This document shows positions 8,153 to 47,232 of a DNA stretch of 64,000 nucleotides, piece by piece. A program made the translations under genes and the position numbers. The notes beneath the pieces are model-generated. The model was not told the DNA's origin, searched no databases, and saw only the letters and a program-made list of their open reading frames with translations. Source of the stretch: Sediminibacterium sp. (GTDB lineage: Bacteria > Bacteroidota > Bacteroidia > Chitinophagales > Chitinophagaceae). The stretch's first letter is position 1; the number at the start of each line of letters is the position of its first letter. Location of the stretch: NCBI GenBank assembly GCA_036405675.1, contig DASWXD010000004.1, forward strand, positions 4,766-68,765, read 5' to 3'.

Positions 8153-8521
8153 ATGATCACTGTTGTCAAACACTGCCTTACCTGCCAGGCAGCCCTGCAT
8201 GGCAGAACCGACAAAAAATTCTGCAACGATTATTGCCGTAACACCCATCACAACACCTTACATAGTGATAGCAACAACTGTATGCGCAGCATCAACTACA
8301 ACCTTCGCAGAAACCGGCATATCCTCGAAAATCTGCTACCAGCTACCAAACCCCTTACCAGGATCTCACGCGAGTTATTACAGCGAAAAGGTTTCAGCTT
8401 TCACTATTTCACCCACCAGTTACCCAACCGGAAAGGGCATCCTGTTTTTTTCTGTTATGATTATGGGTATCGGGTATTGGGGAAGGAGTGGGTGATGGTG
8501 GTGCGGGGAAGGAATGATTGA
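8153..8521 (+). CDS. Hypothetical protein with N-terminal Zn-ribbon (DUF2116-like)
   Basis: CLTC...GRTDKKFCNDYCR, then NxxLRRNRxIL and FxFHYFTH...FCYDYGY. Confidence 0.75.
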   Translation: MITVVKHCLTCQAALHGRTDKKFCNDYCRNTHHNTLHSDSNNCMRSINYNLRRNRHILENLLPATKPLTRISRELLQRKGFSFHYFTHQLPNRKGHPVFFCYDYGYRVLGKEWVMVVRGRND

Positions 8522-8672
8522 ACAGATGAACAGACGAGCAAGGAACAGAAGAACAGATGAATTGGTTGATATAAGTGAGACAGGGAGTTACACAGATAAC
8601 GATAGCTATTTTCTATAAATGAACATGTTCGTCAGTTCCTTGTTCATCGGTTCGTCTGTTCATCTGTTCAAT
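8517..8672. repeat. Inverted repeat of tandem GAACAGAN octamers (family A, copy 1)
   Basis: Left arm ttGAACAGAT GAACAGAC GAGCAAG GAACAGAA GAACAGAT; right arm 8635-8672 is a reverse-complement array; the outer 22 bp pair perfectly. Confidence 0.9.
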
Positions 8673-15554: not shown

Positions 15555-15890
15555 ATGGCATCCGCTAAAACAGAGATATTTACACAGGAAGATCAGGACC
15601 TGGCAGCCATCGCCAAAGTGCTTTCGCACCCGGCCCGTGTTGCCATTTTAAAGATCCTTGCCGCGCAAAACGCTTGTATCTGCGGCGAGATCGTAGACAT
15701 ATTACCCCTGGCACAATCCACCGTTTCGCAGCATTTAAAAGAATTAAAGAACGCCGGCCTCATTAAAGGAACCATCGACGGACCCAAAAGCTGTTACTGC
15801 ATCAACCGCGAAGCATTTGAAAAACTGCACGGGGTCTTTGACTCTCTTTTTACATCGCTGAAAACGGATAACGCCACCAACTGTTGTTAA
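15555..15890 (+). CDS. arsR: ArsR/SmtB family repressor
   Basis: LSHPARVAIL, ACICGEI, AQSTVSQHLKELK, C-terminal CC. Confidence 0.93.
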   Translation: MASAKTEIFTQEDQDLAAIAKVLSHPARVAILKILAAQNACICGEIVDILPLAQSTVSQHLKELKNAGLIKGTIDGPKSCYCINREAFEKLHGVFDSLFTSLKTDNATNCC

Positions 15891-15968
15891 CAAACGCGCC
15901 TCTGCACTCTTACAGAATGCGTTCTGTTGAAGTGCAAAGGCGTTATTACAAACCATAAAAAATATATT

Positions 15969-16820
15969 ATGCAAACCGAACAGGAATTAAAAGCATTGGT
16001 AAAAGAAAAGTACGGCGAGATCGCTGATCAATCGCGCACACAGAACCTGTCTTCCTGCTGCGGCTCCGGCTGCTGCAGCGATGAAGTGTATAACCTGATG
16101 GCTGATGATTATTCGCAACTGCAGGGTTATAACGCAGATGCGGATCTGGGCCTCGGCTGTGGTTTACCTACGCAATTTGCGCAGATCAAAAAAGGAGATG
16201 TGGTGATCGACCTTGGCAGTGGTGCCGGCAACGATTGTTTTGTAGCCCGTGCCGCCACCGGCGAAACAGGGAAAGTGATCGGCATCGATTTCACAGAAAA
16301 AATGATTGAGAAAGCGAGAGCCAACGCAGAGAAACTCGGTTATCACAATGTGGAATTCCGTTTTGGAGATATCGAACACATGCCCGTATCGGCCAATGTA
16401 GCCGATGTGGTAGTGAGTAACTGTGTACTCAACCTCGTTCCCAATAAATTCAATGTATTAAAAGAAGTATACCGCATATTAAAACCCGGCGGCCATTTCA
16501 GCATTTCTGATATTGTACTCGAAGGAGAACTGCCTGCCCCATTAAAACAAGCCGCTGAAATGTATGCGGGCTGTGTATCCGGTGCTATTCAGAAACAGGT
16601 ATATCTGGAACTGATCAACACCACCGGTTTTACCAATATCACCGTACAGAAAGAAAAACTGATCAATATCCCGGATGATATTCTCAGTAACTATATCAGC
16701 CAGGAAGAGATCGCCGCTTTCCGTAACAGTAATATGGGCATTTACAGCGTAACCGTATATGCCGAAAAACCTGTGGAGAAAGAAGCCTGCTGTGTACCCG
16801 GTTCCGGCTGCTGTAATTAA
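15969..16820 (+). CDS. arsM: Arsenite S-adenosylmethionine methyltransferase
   Basis: LGLGCG, VIDLGSGAGND, VVVSNCVLNL, AEMYAGCVSGA; ATG at 15969. Confidence 0.93.
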   Translation: MQTEQELKALVKEKYGEIADQSRTQNLSSCCGSGCCSDEVYNLMADDYSQLQGYNADADLGLGCGLPTQFAQIKKGDVVIDLGSGAGNDCFVARAATGETGKVIGIDFTEKMIEKARANAEKLGYHNVEFRFGDIEHMPVSANVADVVVSNCVLNLVPNKFNVLKEVYRILKPGGHFSISDIVLEGELPAPLKQAAEMYAGCVSGAIQKQVYLELINTTGFTNITVQKEKLINIPDDILSNYISQEEIAAFRNSNMGIYSVTVYAEKPVEKEACCVPGSGCCN

Positions 16821-16830
16821 TATCAACCCG

Positions 16831-16878
16831 CGCCTTAGCGCCTTTACGGGAAAATTTTCCCGCAAAGGCGCTAAGGCG
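16831..16878. repeat. 48-bp near-perfect palindrome with AAAGGCGC/TAAGGCG octamer arms (family G)
   Basis: CGCCTTAGCGCCTTT-a-CGGGAAAA|TTTTCCCG-c-AAAGGCGCTAAGGCG, one mismatch, between arsM and arsN. Confidence 0.85.
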
Positions 16879-16896
16879 TAAACATAAATTTGTTGT

Positions 16897-17379
16897 ATGC
16901 TTATTACCAAACTCCTTCCCGAACATTGGGAAGCTGTGAAAACCATTTATGAGGAAGGCATTGCCACCGGTAATGCTACTTTTCAAACCACGGCACCATC
17001 CTGGGAAGAATGGGATGCGGCACATAGTAAAAAACCCAGACTGGTTGCTGTTGAAAACGATACCGTTTTGGGCTGGGCCGCCATCACACCCGTTAGTGGC
17101 CGATGTGTGTATGCCGGTGTGGGCGAAGTCAGTGTGTACGTAAGTGCAGCTGCCCGCGGCAAAGGAGTGGGTAAACAACTACTGCAGGCACTCATCACGG
17201 AAAGTGAAAAAGAAAACCTGTGGACCCTGCAGGCAGGTGTGTTCCCGGAGAATGAAGCCAGTCTCGCTATTCATAAAGCCTGCGGTTTCCGCATCGTAGG
17301 CACCCGTGAAAAAATCGGTAAAATGAATGGTATTTGGAGAGATACCGTGTTATTGGAAAAAAGAAGTGCTCACGTATAA
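16897..17379 (+). CDS. arsN: GNAT acetyltransferase, phosphinothricin/arsinothricin N-acetyltransferase type (ArsN1-like)
   Basis: IYEEGIATGNATFQT, VSGRCVYAGVGEVSVYV, RGKGVGKQLL, ASLAIHKACGFRIVG; inside the ars operon. Confidence 0.82.
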   Translation: MLITKLLPEHWEAVKTIYEEGIATGNATFQTTAPSWEEWDAAHSKKPRLVAVENDTVLGWAAITPVSGRCVYAGVGEVSVYVSAAARGKGVGKQLLQALITESEKENLWTLQAGVFPENEASLAIHKACGFRIVGTREKIGKMNGIWRDTVLLEKRSAHV

Positions 17380-17388
17380 TTGAATCAA

Positions 17389-18468
17389 ATGTCTGCCAAC
17401 AACTGCGCCCCGGCTCACGAAAGAAAAAAACTCAGTTTCCTCGACCGCTATCTCACCTTATGGATCTTTCTGGCCATGGCGATCGGGGTAGGCATCGGTT
17501 ATTTGTTTCCTTCCTCTGCTGGTTTTATCAATCAGTTTTCCAGTGGCACTACGAATATTCCACTGGCAGTTGGTTTGATCCTGATGATGTATCCTCCCCT
17601 CGCCAAAGTGCGTTATGAAAAAATGCACGAAGTATTTACCAATACCAAAGTGCTGGGTGCCTCGCTATTGCTGAACTGGATCATTGGACCCATTGTGATG
17701 TTTCTGCTGGCCATTGTTTTTTTACAGGGCTATCCGGAATACATGATCGGTCTCATTCTCATCGGCCTCGCCCGTTGTATTGCGATGGTAGTAGTATGGA
17801 ACGAACTGGCAGAAGGAAACCGCGAATATGCCGCAGGACTGGTAGCATTGAACAGTATTTTCCAGGTATTATTATACAGCGTGTATGCCTGGCTCTTTAT
17901 TACCATTTTGCCACCCCTGTTCGGCATCAAAGGACTCGAAGTGAATATCACCATCGGCATGATTGCAGAATCAGTCGCTATTTATCTCGGTATTCCTTTT
18001 GCAGCCGGTGTGATCAGTCGGTACACACTGATCCGTCTCAAAGGCGAAGAATGGTTTCAGCAGAAATTTGTTCCCTTTATCTCACCCATTACACTGATCG
18101 CACTTTTATTTACGATCCTCGTCATGTTCAGTTTAAAAGGGGAACTTATTGTTCGCATACCGATGGATGTTGTAAGAATTGCTATCCCGCTGGTGATCTA
18201 TTTTATCCTGATGTTTCTCTCCAGCTTTTTTGTTGCCAAAACATTGGGTGCCGATTATGCCAAAAACGCCGCCGTTTCTTTTACTGCAACGGGCAATAAT
18301 TTTGAACTCGCTATTGCCGTAGCCATTGGTGTATTCGGCATTAATTCCGGACAAGCATTTGCAGGTGTCATCGGCCCACTGGTAGAAGTACCGGCACTCA
18401 TCGCTTTGGTGAATGTGGCTTTCTGGCTGCAGAGAAAATATTATACGAAACCGCTTACGAACTCATAA
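17389..18468 (+). CDS. acr3: ACR3 family arsenite efflux transporter
   Basis: [43 protein letters not shown]. Confidence 0.96.
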
Positions 18469-18537
18469 CATCTTGCGCTATTGAAATCAATCACCCTATT
18501 ATTCGGGATTACATGTCGCTCACGGCCGCTGGGCCCC

Positions 18538-18644
18538 GTGCCTGTTACCGGGCTGCTTTGGCTTCTGATCAGATCTGCTTCGCATGATCTGATCTGTCTG
18601 TGCTTCGCTCGACACCGAACCCAAAGAGGCCCGTCCACAGGCAC
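18538..18644. repeat. Branched (Y/T-shaped) palindromic element
   Basis: GTGCCTGT/ACAGGCAC, CGGGC/GCCCG and CTTTGG/CCAAAG form a stem closing two hairpins with GC-TTC-GC loops. Confidence 0.75.
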
Positions 18645-18749
18645 TGATTAGAAATAATTCATCGATCACCTTACAATAGCAGTTTTTTTAATCATACCGA
18701 TTTAGAAGTATCGAATACACAAAATCTCAACTCATAACAATCATCATCT

Positions 18750-19148
18750 ATGTCAGTCAAAAAGAAAGTATTATTTGTTTGTGTAGAGAACAGTAACCGC
18801 AGCCAGATGAGCCAGGCTTTTGCCATCCTGCATGGCGGTGATACGGTGGAAGCCTATAGCGCCGGCAGTAAACCCAGTGGTATCGTTAACCCCAAAGCCA
18901 TTGCCGCCATGAAAGAACTGGGGTACGATCTCAGTACACACGATAGTAAATCATTACAGGAAGTAGAACAATATGCGCCTTTTGATGCTGTGGTAACCAT
19001 GGGCTGTGGCGACGCCTGTCCGTGGATGCCTGCCAAACAGTTTATCGACTGGCAGATCCCCGATCCCAAACACATGGAGCCTGCTGCATTTAATGAAGTG
19101 CGTGATTATATCAGTGAAAAAGTAAAGGAATTGCTGAAAACCTTATGA
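18750..19148 (+). CDS. arsC: Arsenate reductase, LMW-PTP (thioredoxin-coupled) family
   Basis: LFVCVENSNRSQM P-loop, VVTMGCGDACP, WQIPDP. Confidence 0.92.
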   Translation: MSVKKKVLFVCVENSNRSQMSQAFAILHGGDTVEAYSAGSKPSGIVNPKAIAAMKELGYDLSTHDSKSLQEVEQYAPFDAVVTMGCGDACPWMPAKQFIDWQIPDPKHMEPAAFNEVRDYISEKVKELLKTL

Positions 19149-19508: not shown

Positions 19509-19540
19509 ATGGATCTTTTGAAAGGTTAAGTTACCATTTA

Positions 19541-19626
19541 AATATCGAATATCGAACAGGGAACACCGAATATCGATCGGAGCGTTACTTCGGCGTTCGA
19601 TATTCCCTGTTCGATATTCGATATTC
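19541..19626. repeat. Inverted repeat of tandem AATATCG/AACAGGG heptamers (family B, copy 1)
   Basis: AATATCG AATATCG AACAGGG AACACCG AATATCG ... CGATATT CCCTGTT CGATATT CGATATT. Confidence 0.92.
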
Positions 19627-19633
19627 AAAATTC

Positions 19634-22220: not shown

Positions 22221-22322
22221 TGAACAGAGGAACAGATGAACAGACGAACAAGGAACGGATGAACGGAGAGATTGATTTATTACATTACTTCCGATCATCT
22301 GTTCATCTGTTCCTCTGTTCAA
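22221..22322. repeat. Inverted repeat of tandem GAACAGAN octamers (family A, copy 2)
   Basis: GAACAGAG GAACAGAT GAACAGAC GAACAAG GAACGGAT GAACGGAG ... ATCTGTTC ATCTGTTC CTCTGTTC. Confidence 0.9.
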
Positions 22323-28490: not shown

Positions 28491-28578
28491 GAATGTCGAA
28501 TATCGAACAGGGAATATCGAATGTCGAAGTAATATCCGATCGACATTCGATATTCCCTGTTCGATATTCTGCTGTTCC
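28491..28578. repeat. Inverted repeat of tandem AATATCG/AACAGGG/AATGTCG heptamers (family B, copy 2)
   Basis: Fills the gap between two convergent TAG stops: AATGTCG AATATCG AACAGGG AATATCG AATGTCG ... CGACATT CGATATT CCCTGTT CGATATT. Confidence 0.92.
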
Positions 28579-44442: not shown

Positions 44443-44539
44443 GGCGTGAATCGTGAGTAGTCAGTAGTAAGTAGGTGGAAATGGATAAACGCTCCTTACT
44501 AACGTCTCACGACTGACGACTGACGACTCACGATTCACC
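44438..44539. repeat. Inverted repeat of CGTGAGT/CGTCAGT heptamers (family D, copy 2)
   Basis: CGTGAGG CGTGAAT CGTGAGT AGTCAGT AGTAAGT ... TCTCACG ACTGACG ACTGACG ACTCACG ATTCACC; first unit contains the TGA stop. Confidence 0.9.
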
Positions 44540-47105: not shown

Positions 47106-47232
47106 TCAACTCACCCCGACGGCACTTCGTGCGTCGACCCTCTCTACTGCGTAGAGAGGGTGGGACTCTCCCCCTACCCCTCTCTGCTCTGCAGAGAGGG
47201 GTGACGAGCGAAGCGATGTCGGGGTGAGTTGA
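47106..47232. mobile_element. 127-bp nested palindromic element (MITE/REP-like, non-autonomous)
   Basis: 15-bp perfect terminal inverted repeats TCAACTCACCCCGAC/GTCGGGGTGAGTTGA enclosing two CCCTCTCT...AGAGAGGG hairpins. Confidence 0.65.

Follow-up and report, generated by a model that had tools for sequence, protein, structure and literature searches.

A Y-shaped palindrome between acr3 and arsC of Sediminibacterium sp.: probably an IS982-type miniature inverted-repeat transposable element carrying an older, conserved structured core

Background

Small, intergenic, multi-copy repeats with stable stem-loops, often co-transcribed and occurring in modular variants, are exemplified by the Correia elements of Neisseria, ERIC/IRU, RUP and BOX of Streptococcus, and REP/BIME. 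For the most part these repeats are either modular boxes or long hairpins of simple build, and what is known of their effects concerns the RNA level or protein binding; REP, ERIC and Correia elements act as co-transcribed cis RNA elements that stabilise or insulate mRNA or direct its processing. Chromosomal element classes that work as folded single-stranded DNA (ssDNA) are few, namely attC sites, IS200/IS605 and REP ends, single-strand initiation (ssi) signals and CTX-type attachment sites. In this study, we analysed a 64,000-nt stretch of Sediminibacterium sp. (the window; contig DASWXD010000004.1), in which a Y-shaped palindrome at 18538-18644 lies between the arsenic resistance genes acr3 and arsC. 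A sequence-only reading had proposed that this palindrome may act as folded ssDNA, like the substrates of HUH enzymes, rather than as RNA. In our analysis the best explanation overall, and one that we regard as highly probable, is a MITE (miniature inverted-repeat transposable element) of IS982 type that carries an older conserved structured core.

Two further described systems are close to this locus. In Cardinium, which is also a member of Bacteroidota, the IS982-derived MITECca01 of ~240 bp has been described together with its parent insertion sequence (IS), ISCca4 (PMC9769881). Mini-hairpins of the type d(GCGNAGC), on the other side, occur in single-strand initiation signals (the phage G4 origin and RSF1010 ssiA) and in the phage N4 early promoters (PMC13037366).

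Results

Insertion of a MITE into the acr3-arsC spacer

The gap in the ars operon is unusually long, as the sequence-only reading had remarked, with 281 nt from the acr3 stop codon to the arsC ATG (18750) against 13 to ~73 nt in relatives (~53-73 nt in other congeners). The shortest spacer, that of the relative G289 (contig C288; left flank ending in CTTACT), represents an empty site, in which the stop codon, 13 nt and the arsC ATG follow each other; the acr3 and arsC segments of this relative are 90% and 93% identical to those of the window and adjoin with a 9-nt overlap. The empty site reads ...CCGCTTACT AACGCATAA TCAATCATCAGTC ATG, and the filled site of the window ...CCGCTTACG AACTCATAA [260 bp] AACTCATAA CAATCATCATCT ATG. 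The comparison thus places the insertion at 18469-18728 and indicates that the original spacer was 13 nt long and that the duplicated target includes the acr3 stop codon (TAA, 18466-18468); since the target ends in AA, the boundaries of the insertion are uncertain by 1-2 nt. The features of the locus, including the terminal inverted repeats (TIRs) and the target-site duplications, are as follows.

17380..18468, plus strand: acr3, arsenite efflux permease (open reading frame (ORF); Pfam SBF, 203 bits; acr3-arsC pairs in relatives)
18460..18468, no strand: left target-site duplication AACTCATAA; the same 9-mer at 18729-18737, a single AACGCATAA in G289
18467..18482, plus strand: left TIR, degenerate, AACATCTTGCGCTATT against the consensus AACGTGTTGTGCTATT (13/16)
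18469..18728, plus strand: MITE insertion of 260 bp with IS982-type ends (19 genome copies by nhmmer, copy alignment, empty site, target-site duplication statistics)
18714..18728, minus strand: remnant of the right TIR, strongly degenerate, AATACACAAAATCTC against the consensus AATAGCACAAGACGT (copy alignment)
18729..18737, no strand: right target-site duplication AACTCATAA (comparison with the empty site of G289)
18750..19148, plus strand: arsC, low-molecular-weight phosphatase-type arsenate reductase (ORF; Pfam LMWPc, 70.7 bits)

The inserted sequence belongs to a new IS982-type MITE family of Sediminibacterium. Searches with BLAST and an nhmmer profile identified 19 copies in the 3.77-Mb, 136-contig assembly, and the element is not single-copy. 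Within the genus, BLAST detected the core in 17 of the 100 species sampled. The copies are 238-310 bp long, have no transposase gene and differ by indels of 1-30 nt in their alignment; their similarity spans roughly 18465-18722 in window coordinates, with the ends TAACGTGTTGTGCTATT ... AATAGCACAAGACGTTA, and TIRs of 15-16 nt with the consensus ACGTGTTGTGCTATT are present at both copy ends. The window copy is flanked by a duplication of 8-9 bp, and across the family 7-8 of 8 positions match in 12 of 31 copies when a fixed frame is used, compared with 1.7% of mismatched left-right flank pairs; several further copies match once shifted by 1 nt.

The window copy itself is probably old and immobile, as its inverted repeats have decayed (13/16 on the left, worse on the right). 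ORFs over this copy are only mechanical ones of 56 and 67 aa, and a coding element was rejected because the lengths of the indels between copies are not divisible by three. A role as terminator or sigma-70 promoter was likewise considered and dropped: no terminator-like site was found in the window copy, and its one sigma-70 promoter match is at chance level.

An IS982-family partner element

The partner came to light only in an exact-TIR scan of metagenome contigs, which revealed three elements of 1023-1025 bp with perfect 16-nt TIRs, that is, autonomous elements with the same ends as the MITE; the 16-mer consensus of the left TIR also terminates the 1023-bp elements. Two of the three have intact ORFs of 301 and 310 aa, and the remaining one has an in-frame TGA. 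The transposases match the NCBIfam model NF033520 ('IS982 family transposase') with 200.4 and 205 bits, above its cut-off of 130, whereas the next-best model, IS5, reaches 53 bits against a cut-off of 110; they also match Pfam DDE_Tnp_1_3. The partner termini start with AC and the duplication is 8 bp, which fits the ISfinder listing for IS982 (AC ends, 3-9 bp). The perfect 8-bp duplication, TAAATATA, belongs to the element L111:2058-3080. This copy has perfect TIRs as well, but the in-frame TGA splits its transposase (..MEAL*IDSENLLW..), and it is probably a recent pseudogene.

Pieces of the transposase occur at four contig ends in G289 and also in G234, G274 and G245, and three of these four genomes (G289, G234 and G274) carry the MITE. 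MITE and partner IS have only the terminal 21-31 nt in common. As the same TIRs bound IS982-family elements, mobility would be of the DDE cut- or copy-and-paste type, and the identical termini together with the co-occurrence of transposase fragments and MITE suggest that an IS982-family transposase mobilises the MITE in trans. In this genome (G000), such mobilisation would be historical or rely on unassembled copies; TIR pairs 0.1-5 kb apart with a duplication were not found in it besides the MITEs. The families covered by the Pfam models for IS1595, IS256, ISL3 and IS4/IS5 are absent from G000, G282 and G235. Two other partner candidates were rejected: a weak ISL3 match proved to be a histidine kinase, and for several of the 20 solitary TIRs in G282 the adjacent ORFs turned out to be ordinary genes, among them AraC, methyltransferase and penicillin amidase.

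Side observations on the family concern its labels and its variants. An exact 26-mer occurs in 28 stretches in metagenome-assembled genomes (MAGs) titled Sediminibacterium, Chitinophagaceae, Chitinophagales or Bacteroidota, and the MITE is also present in MAGs titled 'Caulobacter sp.' (CALRMK02: L043, L047, L048, L051, L057) and 'Chitinophaga pinensis' (CALSAD01: L060, L061). The 'Caulobacter' records also contain counterparts of loci of this genome (for example, the L043 copy shares its flanks with C2:11663 and L057 with C102), and the labels of these MAGs are therefore probably wrong. The same TIRs also bound unrelated hairpin-rich interiors of ~160-560 bp (L035:91-373, L034 at ~866-1029, and G282, which has 78 TIR matches with pairs 180-560 bp apart), and apparently one transposase acts on a whole series of MITE families.

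Deletion derivatives of the MITE are represented by L233 (G298:C5) and L234 (G244:C4), one of which retains only P0 and the start of P1/P2, joined straight to the 3' tail (helix names as listed below), and the other lacks the two hairpins of the junction; short direct repeats lie at the ends of each deletion, as expected from replication slippage across hairpins. In other copies, certain parts of the core (the P0 tip, the P2 5' strand, the hairpin A 5' arm and the hairpin B tip) are replaced or lengthened by GC-rich mini-hairpins of the form TC(C/T)CG(G)C-N3-5-G(C)CG(G/A)GA; such variants were seen in the G000 copies C96, C2:3347, C2:11663, C130, C31, C39 and C99, and in other genera hairpin B normally has this form. 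The genome has 50 occurrences of TCCCGC-N3-6-GCGGGA, of which 41 lie outside the MITE; some are within other repeat families, and some are probably tRNA 3' ends or terminators.

No association with Y1 transposases

The sequence-only reading had linked the palindrome to HUH enzymes, with REP/RAYT and IS200/IS605 ends as models, and a RAYT or TnpA(Y1) gene flanked by similar elements would be expected. We compared 15 Y1_Tnp genes from five genomes, three from G000 and 12 from the other core-bearing genomes G147, G048, G089 and G062, which have three to six each. Within 1.5 kb of these genes there is no core, the 15 loci have no similarity to the core beyond chance, and a RAYT gene flanked by inverted copies of the core was not found among them. 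The window family also differs from IS200/IS605 ends and PATE in having TIRs and an 8-9-bp duplication. TIRs, duplication, empty site and the IS982 DDE partner together rule out a HUH mechanism for the MITE family, and the proposed HUH link is not supported.

A Y1 gene of RAYT-like appearance was observed on contig C36 of this genome (L032, G000:C36:1-3184; Y1_Tnp match 1475-1684), between inverted 25-nt hairpins at ~1345-1375 and ~1966-1996. These read AGTCGCTCGGC-TCT-GCCGAGTGACT and its complement, and another copy is located at C87:23158; the locus has the appearance of a REP/RAYT-type system of its own, with no relation to the Y core.

The Y-shaped fold

The Y-shaped palindrome is a genuine structure. 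Its stems and both hairpins, as named in the sequence-only reading, are present at 18538-18644, and the minus strand reads GCGAAGC at both hairpin tips. Folding of both strands as DNA and as RNA gave the same minimum free energy (MFE) structure with both parameter sets, a three-way junction. With DNA parameters the MFE is -30.9 kcal/mol for the plus and -34.9 kcal/mol for the minus strand (z -6.3 and -7.2), with RNA parameters -55.3 and -57.6 kcal/mol (z -5.5 and -5.3), and no equally stable fold arose in 200 shuffles. An extra conserved hairpin, P0, lies upstream of the reported feature, and the whole forms a core of 137 nt, which matches the covariance model R1 with 161 bits (G000:C4:23280-23416). 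The three-way junction has five helices, and P0 is an additional 5' hairpin.

18515-18651, plus strand: Y-shaped core, 137 nt, with P0, the stacked P1-P3 and two hairpins at a three-way junction
18524-18535, plus strand: hairpin P0, GGCC-GCTG-GGCC, invariant in the genus and covarying family-wide
18538-18545 with 18637-18644, plus strand: stem P1, GTGCCTGT with ACAGGCAC (sequence, folds)
18549-18554 with 18628-18633, plus strand: stem P2, CGGGC(T) with (G)GCCCG (sequence, folds)
18556-18561 with 18621-18626, plus strand: stem P3, CTTTGG with CCAAAG (sequence, folds)
18538-18561, plus strand: 5' strands of P1-P3 (folds, covariation)
18567-18594, plus strand: hairpin A, GATCAGATC-TGC-TTC-GCA-t-GATCTGATC
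18579-18581: loop of hairpin A, plus-strand TTC, minus-strand GAA, C-G as closing pair (folds)
18595-18614, plus strand: hairpin B, TGTC...GC-TTC-GC...GACA (folds)
18621-18644, plus strand: 3' strands of P3, P2 and P1 (folds, covariation)

The core in other genera of Chitinophagaceae

A covariance model built from the cores of the genus was searched in 150 other genomes of the family, and a full-length core was found in 12 of them, each belonging to a different genus. Several of these genomes have more than one copy: G147 has at least 17, G048 at least 16 and G089 7. In the copies read with 200-nt flanks (one per genome from 11 of the 12 genomes, G101 left out), the IS982 TIR is absent in 11 of 11. 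The repeat of G147 consists of the bare core with ~45 nt of semi-conserved AT-rich sequence upstream at a fixed distance, and in G048 the core sits within larger repeats. Among the flanking ORFs of cores in other genera, no recurring gene arrangement was found. This distribution suggests that the core is a module separate from, and older than, the MITE.

Tandem arrangements were observed in two further genomes. In G062:C8 (L241:1229-1732), 2.4 copies of a unit composed of the Y core and a ~75-nt spacer are repeated with a period of 210 nt, and one more unit is interrupted by another small hairpin repeat. In G045 (L245), two cores lie ~510 nt apart with repeated flanks.

In the genus, a plain MAFFT alignment of 25 distinct cores showed 94.9% pairing over the 46 pairs, with double changes at 14 pairs (81 cells); slid controls reached at most 14 cells, and 0 of 500 shuffles reached the observed values. 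Family-wide, among 46 distinct cores, double changes occur at 38 of the 46 pairs (482 cells) with 94.9% pairing, compared with at most 101 cells in slid controls, and again 0 of 500 shuffles reached the observed values. The family-wide alignment was fitted to the model and is biased towards structure, and the MAFFT alignment of the genus gives the same picture. A single-copy element without covariation in relatives, which the sequence-only reading had named as a refutation of its proposal, is thus not what was found. Double changes were recorded in 7 of 8 pairs of P1, in 12 of 15 pairs of the helix formed by columns 44-60 with 127-146 (P2, P3 and the junction-proximal stem), in all 9 stem pairs of hairpin A and in 6 of 7 pairs of hairpin B; the outer pair of P0 is GC, AU or CG. 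The conserved unpaired residues comprise CTCA at the 5' end and TC before P1, TGGT or TGAT after P1, TG opposite AG between P2 and P3, and TT, A and CC at the junction, the CC lying within an ACCGAAC motif. The fold of the core appears, from this pattern, to be under selection.

A match to a known cis-regulatory RNA of Rfam had been named as another refutation. Rfam gave no match over the element in the window at E up to 10, and in 11 copies taken from other genera nothing relevant was matched at E up to 0.5. Ribozymes with similar three-way junctions (hammerhead, twister-sister and the like) were also considered and rejected; by eye the junction strands do not have the required cores, and Rfam is silent.

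Substitution pattern and strand

Of the 2052 cells in the paired columns, 1905 hold Watson-Crick pairs. If one fixed T-G position is set aside, G-T or T-G is found in 10 cells, A-C or C-A in 26 and other mismatches in 78, and wobble is therefore not favoured over other mismatches on either strand. The loop of hairpin A on the plus strand is TTC in 25 cores, TAC in 8, TCC in 7 and TGC in 5, which on the minus strand corresponds to GNA with invariant G and A, any of the four bases at N, and a C-G closing pair. Judged by its letters, hairpin A of the minus strand agrees with the d(GCGNAGC) motif (5'-GC-GNA-GC-3' with the C-G closing pair). Such mini-hairpins are extraordinarily stable in DNA, and for this stability they rely on a closing C-G pair (PMC13037366, PMC3201870). 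With DNA parameters the minus strand folds more stably than the plus strand in 40 of the 46 cores, and with RNA parameters in 39 of 46, by 4 kcal/mol on average.

The strictly Watson-Crick pairing, the GNA loop of the minus strand and the greater stability of this strand suggest folded DNA rather than RNA as the better match for the pattern. Where the genes on either side are co-directional, the minus-strand version runs with them in 20 cases and against them in 8, a count that includes some orthologous duplicates; this orientation bias is suggestive only. If genes mostly follow the replication fork, the GNA strand would lie on the lagging-strand template.

Neighbouring features of the window

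The operon at 15555-19148 comprises, in this order, arsR (HTH_5), an ArsM-like SAM methyltransferase gene, a GNAT acetyltransferase gene, acr3, the MITE and the arsC of the low-molecular-weight phosphatase type. Other long intergenic palindrome families were noticed in the window at 19537-19629, 28498-28569, 22221-22321, 8517-8672, 44446-44538 and 47106-47232. None of these palindromes has an IS982-type TIR, and a TIR scan of the contig (C4) matched the acr3-arsC copy only. Models of miRNA precursors matched the hairpin at 19537-19629 weakly and below threshold, which reflects no more than its being a long hairpin.

Discussion

We propose that an IS982-family DDE transposase, acting in trans, moves the MITE and duplicates an AT-rich target of 8 (7-9) bp. 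One MITE copy would have entered the 13-nt acr3-arsC spacer after the split from the relative with 90-93% identical flanks, and the ends of this copy would have decayed after insertion. The core is an older module found in many genera of Chitinophagaceae; the copies examined outside this genus stand bare, sit within larger repeats or form short tandem arrays. The minus strand of the core could fold as ssDNA, for example on the lagging-strand template. At the level of the locus the outcome is ordinary: a MITE divided the acr3-arsC junction, an event that can be dated against the empty-site relative, and the insertion may affect the expression of arsC. The cargo is unusual: it is a structured module, covarying at 38 of its 46 pairs, that occurs in many genera and in different mobile contexts and has no Rfam family, and it shows that transposon ends are able to pick up and amplify an unrelated structured module.

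Several observations weigh against this account. A clean duplication is missing at two of the three full-length IS copies, and no transposase copy was found in this assembly by tblastn or Pfam searches. The orientation bias relative to genes is modest (20 antisense against 8 sense, orthologous duplicates counted). Covariation of the Watson-Crick-only kind could also be produced by self-templated intrastrand template switching that corrects quasi-palindromes, and in some variants one stem arm is swapped for a self-contained GC-rich mini-hairpin, so that the pairing is broken. In addition, the AT-rich segment upstream of the core in G147 is possibly a promoter of the plus strand, which would favour an RNA gene.

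What the core itself does can be read in several ways. It may be that the MITE is a plain selfish element and its Y-shaped interior palindromic filler, whose arms are kept complementary by template switching or slippage. The absence of wobble intermediates from the covariation is what self-templated correction would give, and the slippage-type derivatives (L233, L234), the arms swapped for mini-hairpins, the expanded hairpins and the unrelated hairpin-rich interiors between the same TIRs (L034, L035, G282) all agree with it. However, drift and correction alone leave the conserved unpaired residues and the strand-asymmetric loop unexplained: the architecture has been kept in at least 12 genera despite turnover of nearly every paired position, the preserved features being helix order and lengths, the CC and TT of the junction, the motifs ACCGAAC and CTCA, and the loop G-N-A with its invariant G and A; the core persists in several mobile or repeat contexts, and one strand is consistently more stable. 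We consider mere filler rather unlikely. A structured RNA, either the product of a multi-copy small RNA gene that has a promoter of its own or a cis-acting element that stabilises, insulates or processes mRNA, would account for the very strong covariation and the high stability of the RNA fold, for the intergenic position of all copies, often within tens of nt of gene ends, and for the promoter-like segment upstream of the plus strand in G147 and the T-runs after many copies; the window copy, lying in an operon, would be transcribed if arsC is co-transcribed with acr3. Yet G-U is nearly absent (10 of 2052 cells outside the one fixed position) and no commoner than other mismatches, which is atypical of selected RNA helices, and the loop motif and the stability favour the minus strand whereas the promoter-like flank favours the plus strand. 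The silence of Rfam over the window and the 11 other genera, the lack of a terminator-like site in the window copy and the occurrence of copies in both orientations relative to genes also speak against RNA, which is an unlikely explanation in our judgement and less likely than a role of ssDNA on the minus strand.

Movement as folded ssDNA by a HUH/Y1 enzyme, as for REP with RAYT, IS200/IS605 ends or PATE, has some points in its favour, given the many hairpins, the GNA mini-hairpin tip and the DNA-type pairing signature, and given that the genome encodes three Y1_Tnp-like proteins and that the bare core of G147 has neither TIRs nor an obvious duplication. HUH elements, however, make neither TIRs nor a target duplication, and the element of the genus has TIRs, a duplication of 8-9 bp and an IS982 DDE partner; the 15 Y1_Tnp genes of five genomes have no core within 1.5 kb and no significant similarity to the core at their loci, and the Y1 gene on C36 has its own, different 25-nt hairpins. 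The HUH reading is thus largely refuted for the window copy and very improbable as a whole. The broader suggestion of folded ssDNA rather than RNA fared better than its HUH part, with indirect support from the Watson-Crick pairs, the GNA loop and the 40 of 46 cores in which the minus strand is the more stable. A role of the core as ssDNA on the minus strand is the most likely of these readings, and we favour it tentatively. It is possible, though doubtful, that the Y core represents a previously undescribed class of folded ssDNA elements of Chitinophagaceae, strand-specific, GNA-tipped and read on the lagging-strand template, which is cargo of IS982-type ends in Sediminibacterium and of other repeat contexts elsewhere; candidates for its putative reader would include primases and ssi-like factors, nucleases and recombinases. 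If true, the Y core would add an abundant class to the folded-ssDNA elements.

The comparison with known systems points in the same directions. Like the Correia, ERIC, RUP, BOX and REP repeats, the element is small, intergenic and multi-copy, folds into stem-loops and occurs in modular variants; it differs from them by its three-way junction with five helices, its cross-genus covariation with almost no wobble, and its strand-specific GNA loop. With attC sites and IS200/IS605 ends it shares the preservation of structure above sequence, and those elements have a strand-specific function on folded ssDNA. In contrast to them, it lies outside cassette arrays, the window family has TIRs and a target duplication, and an association of the core with an integrase or a Y1 transposase was not found where the Y1 loci of the five genomes were compared. 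The ssi signals resemble it in the tip of hairpin A on the minus strand (5'-GC-GNA-GC-3' with the required C-G pair) and in the similar scale of a multi-hairpin region of ~137 nt; the Y element, however, is chromosomal and dispersed, with ~7 to 19 or more copies per genome, and the resemblance serves as a lead only.

As for the mobile part, the partner elements have the properties of the IS982 family, with a length of ~1 kb and a single DDE transposase passing the NCBIfam IS982 equivalog model, whereas the window element has no transposase gene. It is in this respect like MITECca01, which also has no transposase, has TIRs very similar to those of an IS982-family element and is present in many copies (PMC9769881). 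While MITECca01 has been described as derived from its parent IS, the window MITE shares only ~21-31 terminal nt with its IS, a comparison made by description (PMC9769881). Unlike that of MITECca01, the interior of the window MITE is an unrelated structured module, which is found in other genera in company other than IS982 ends.

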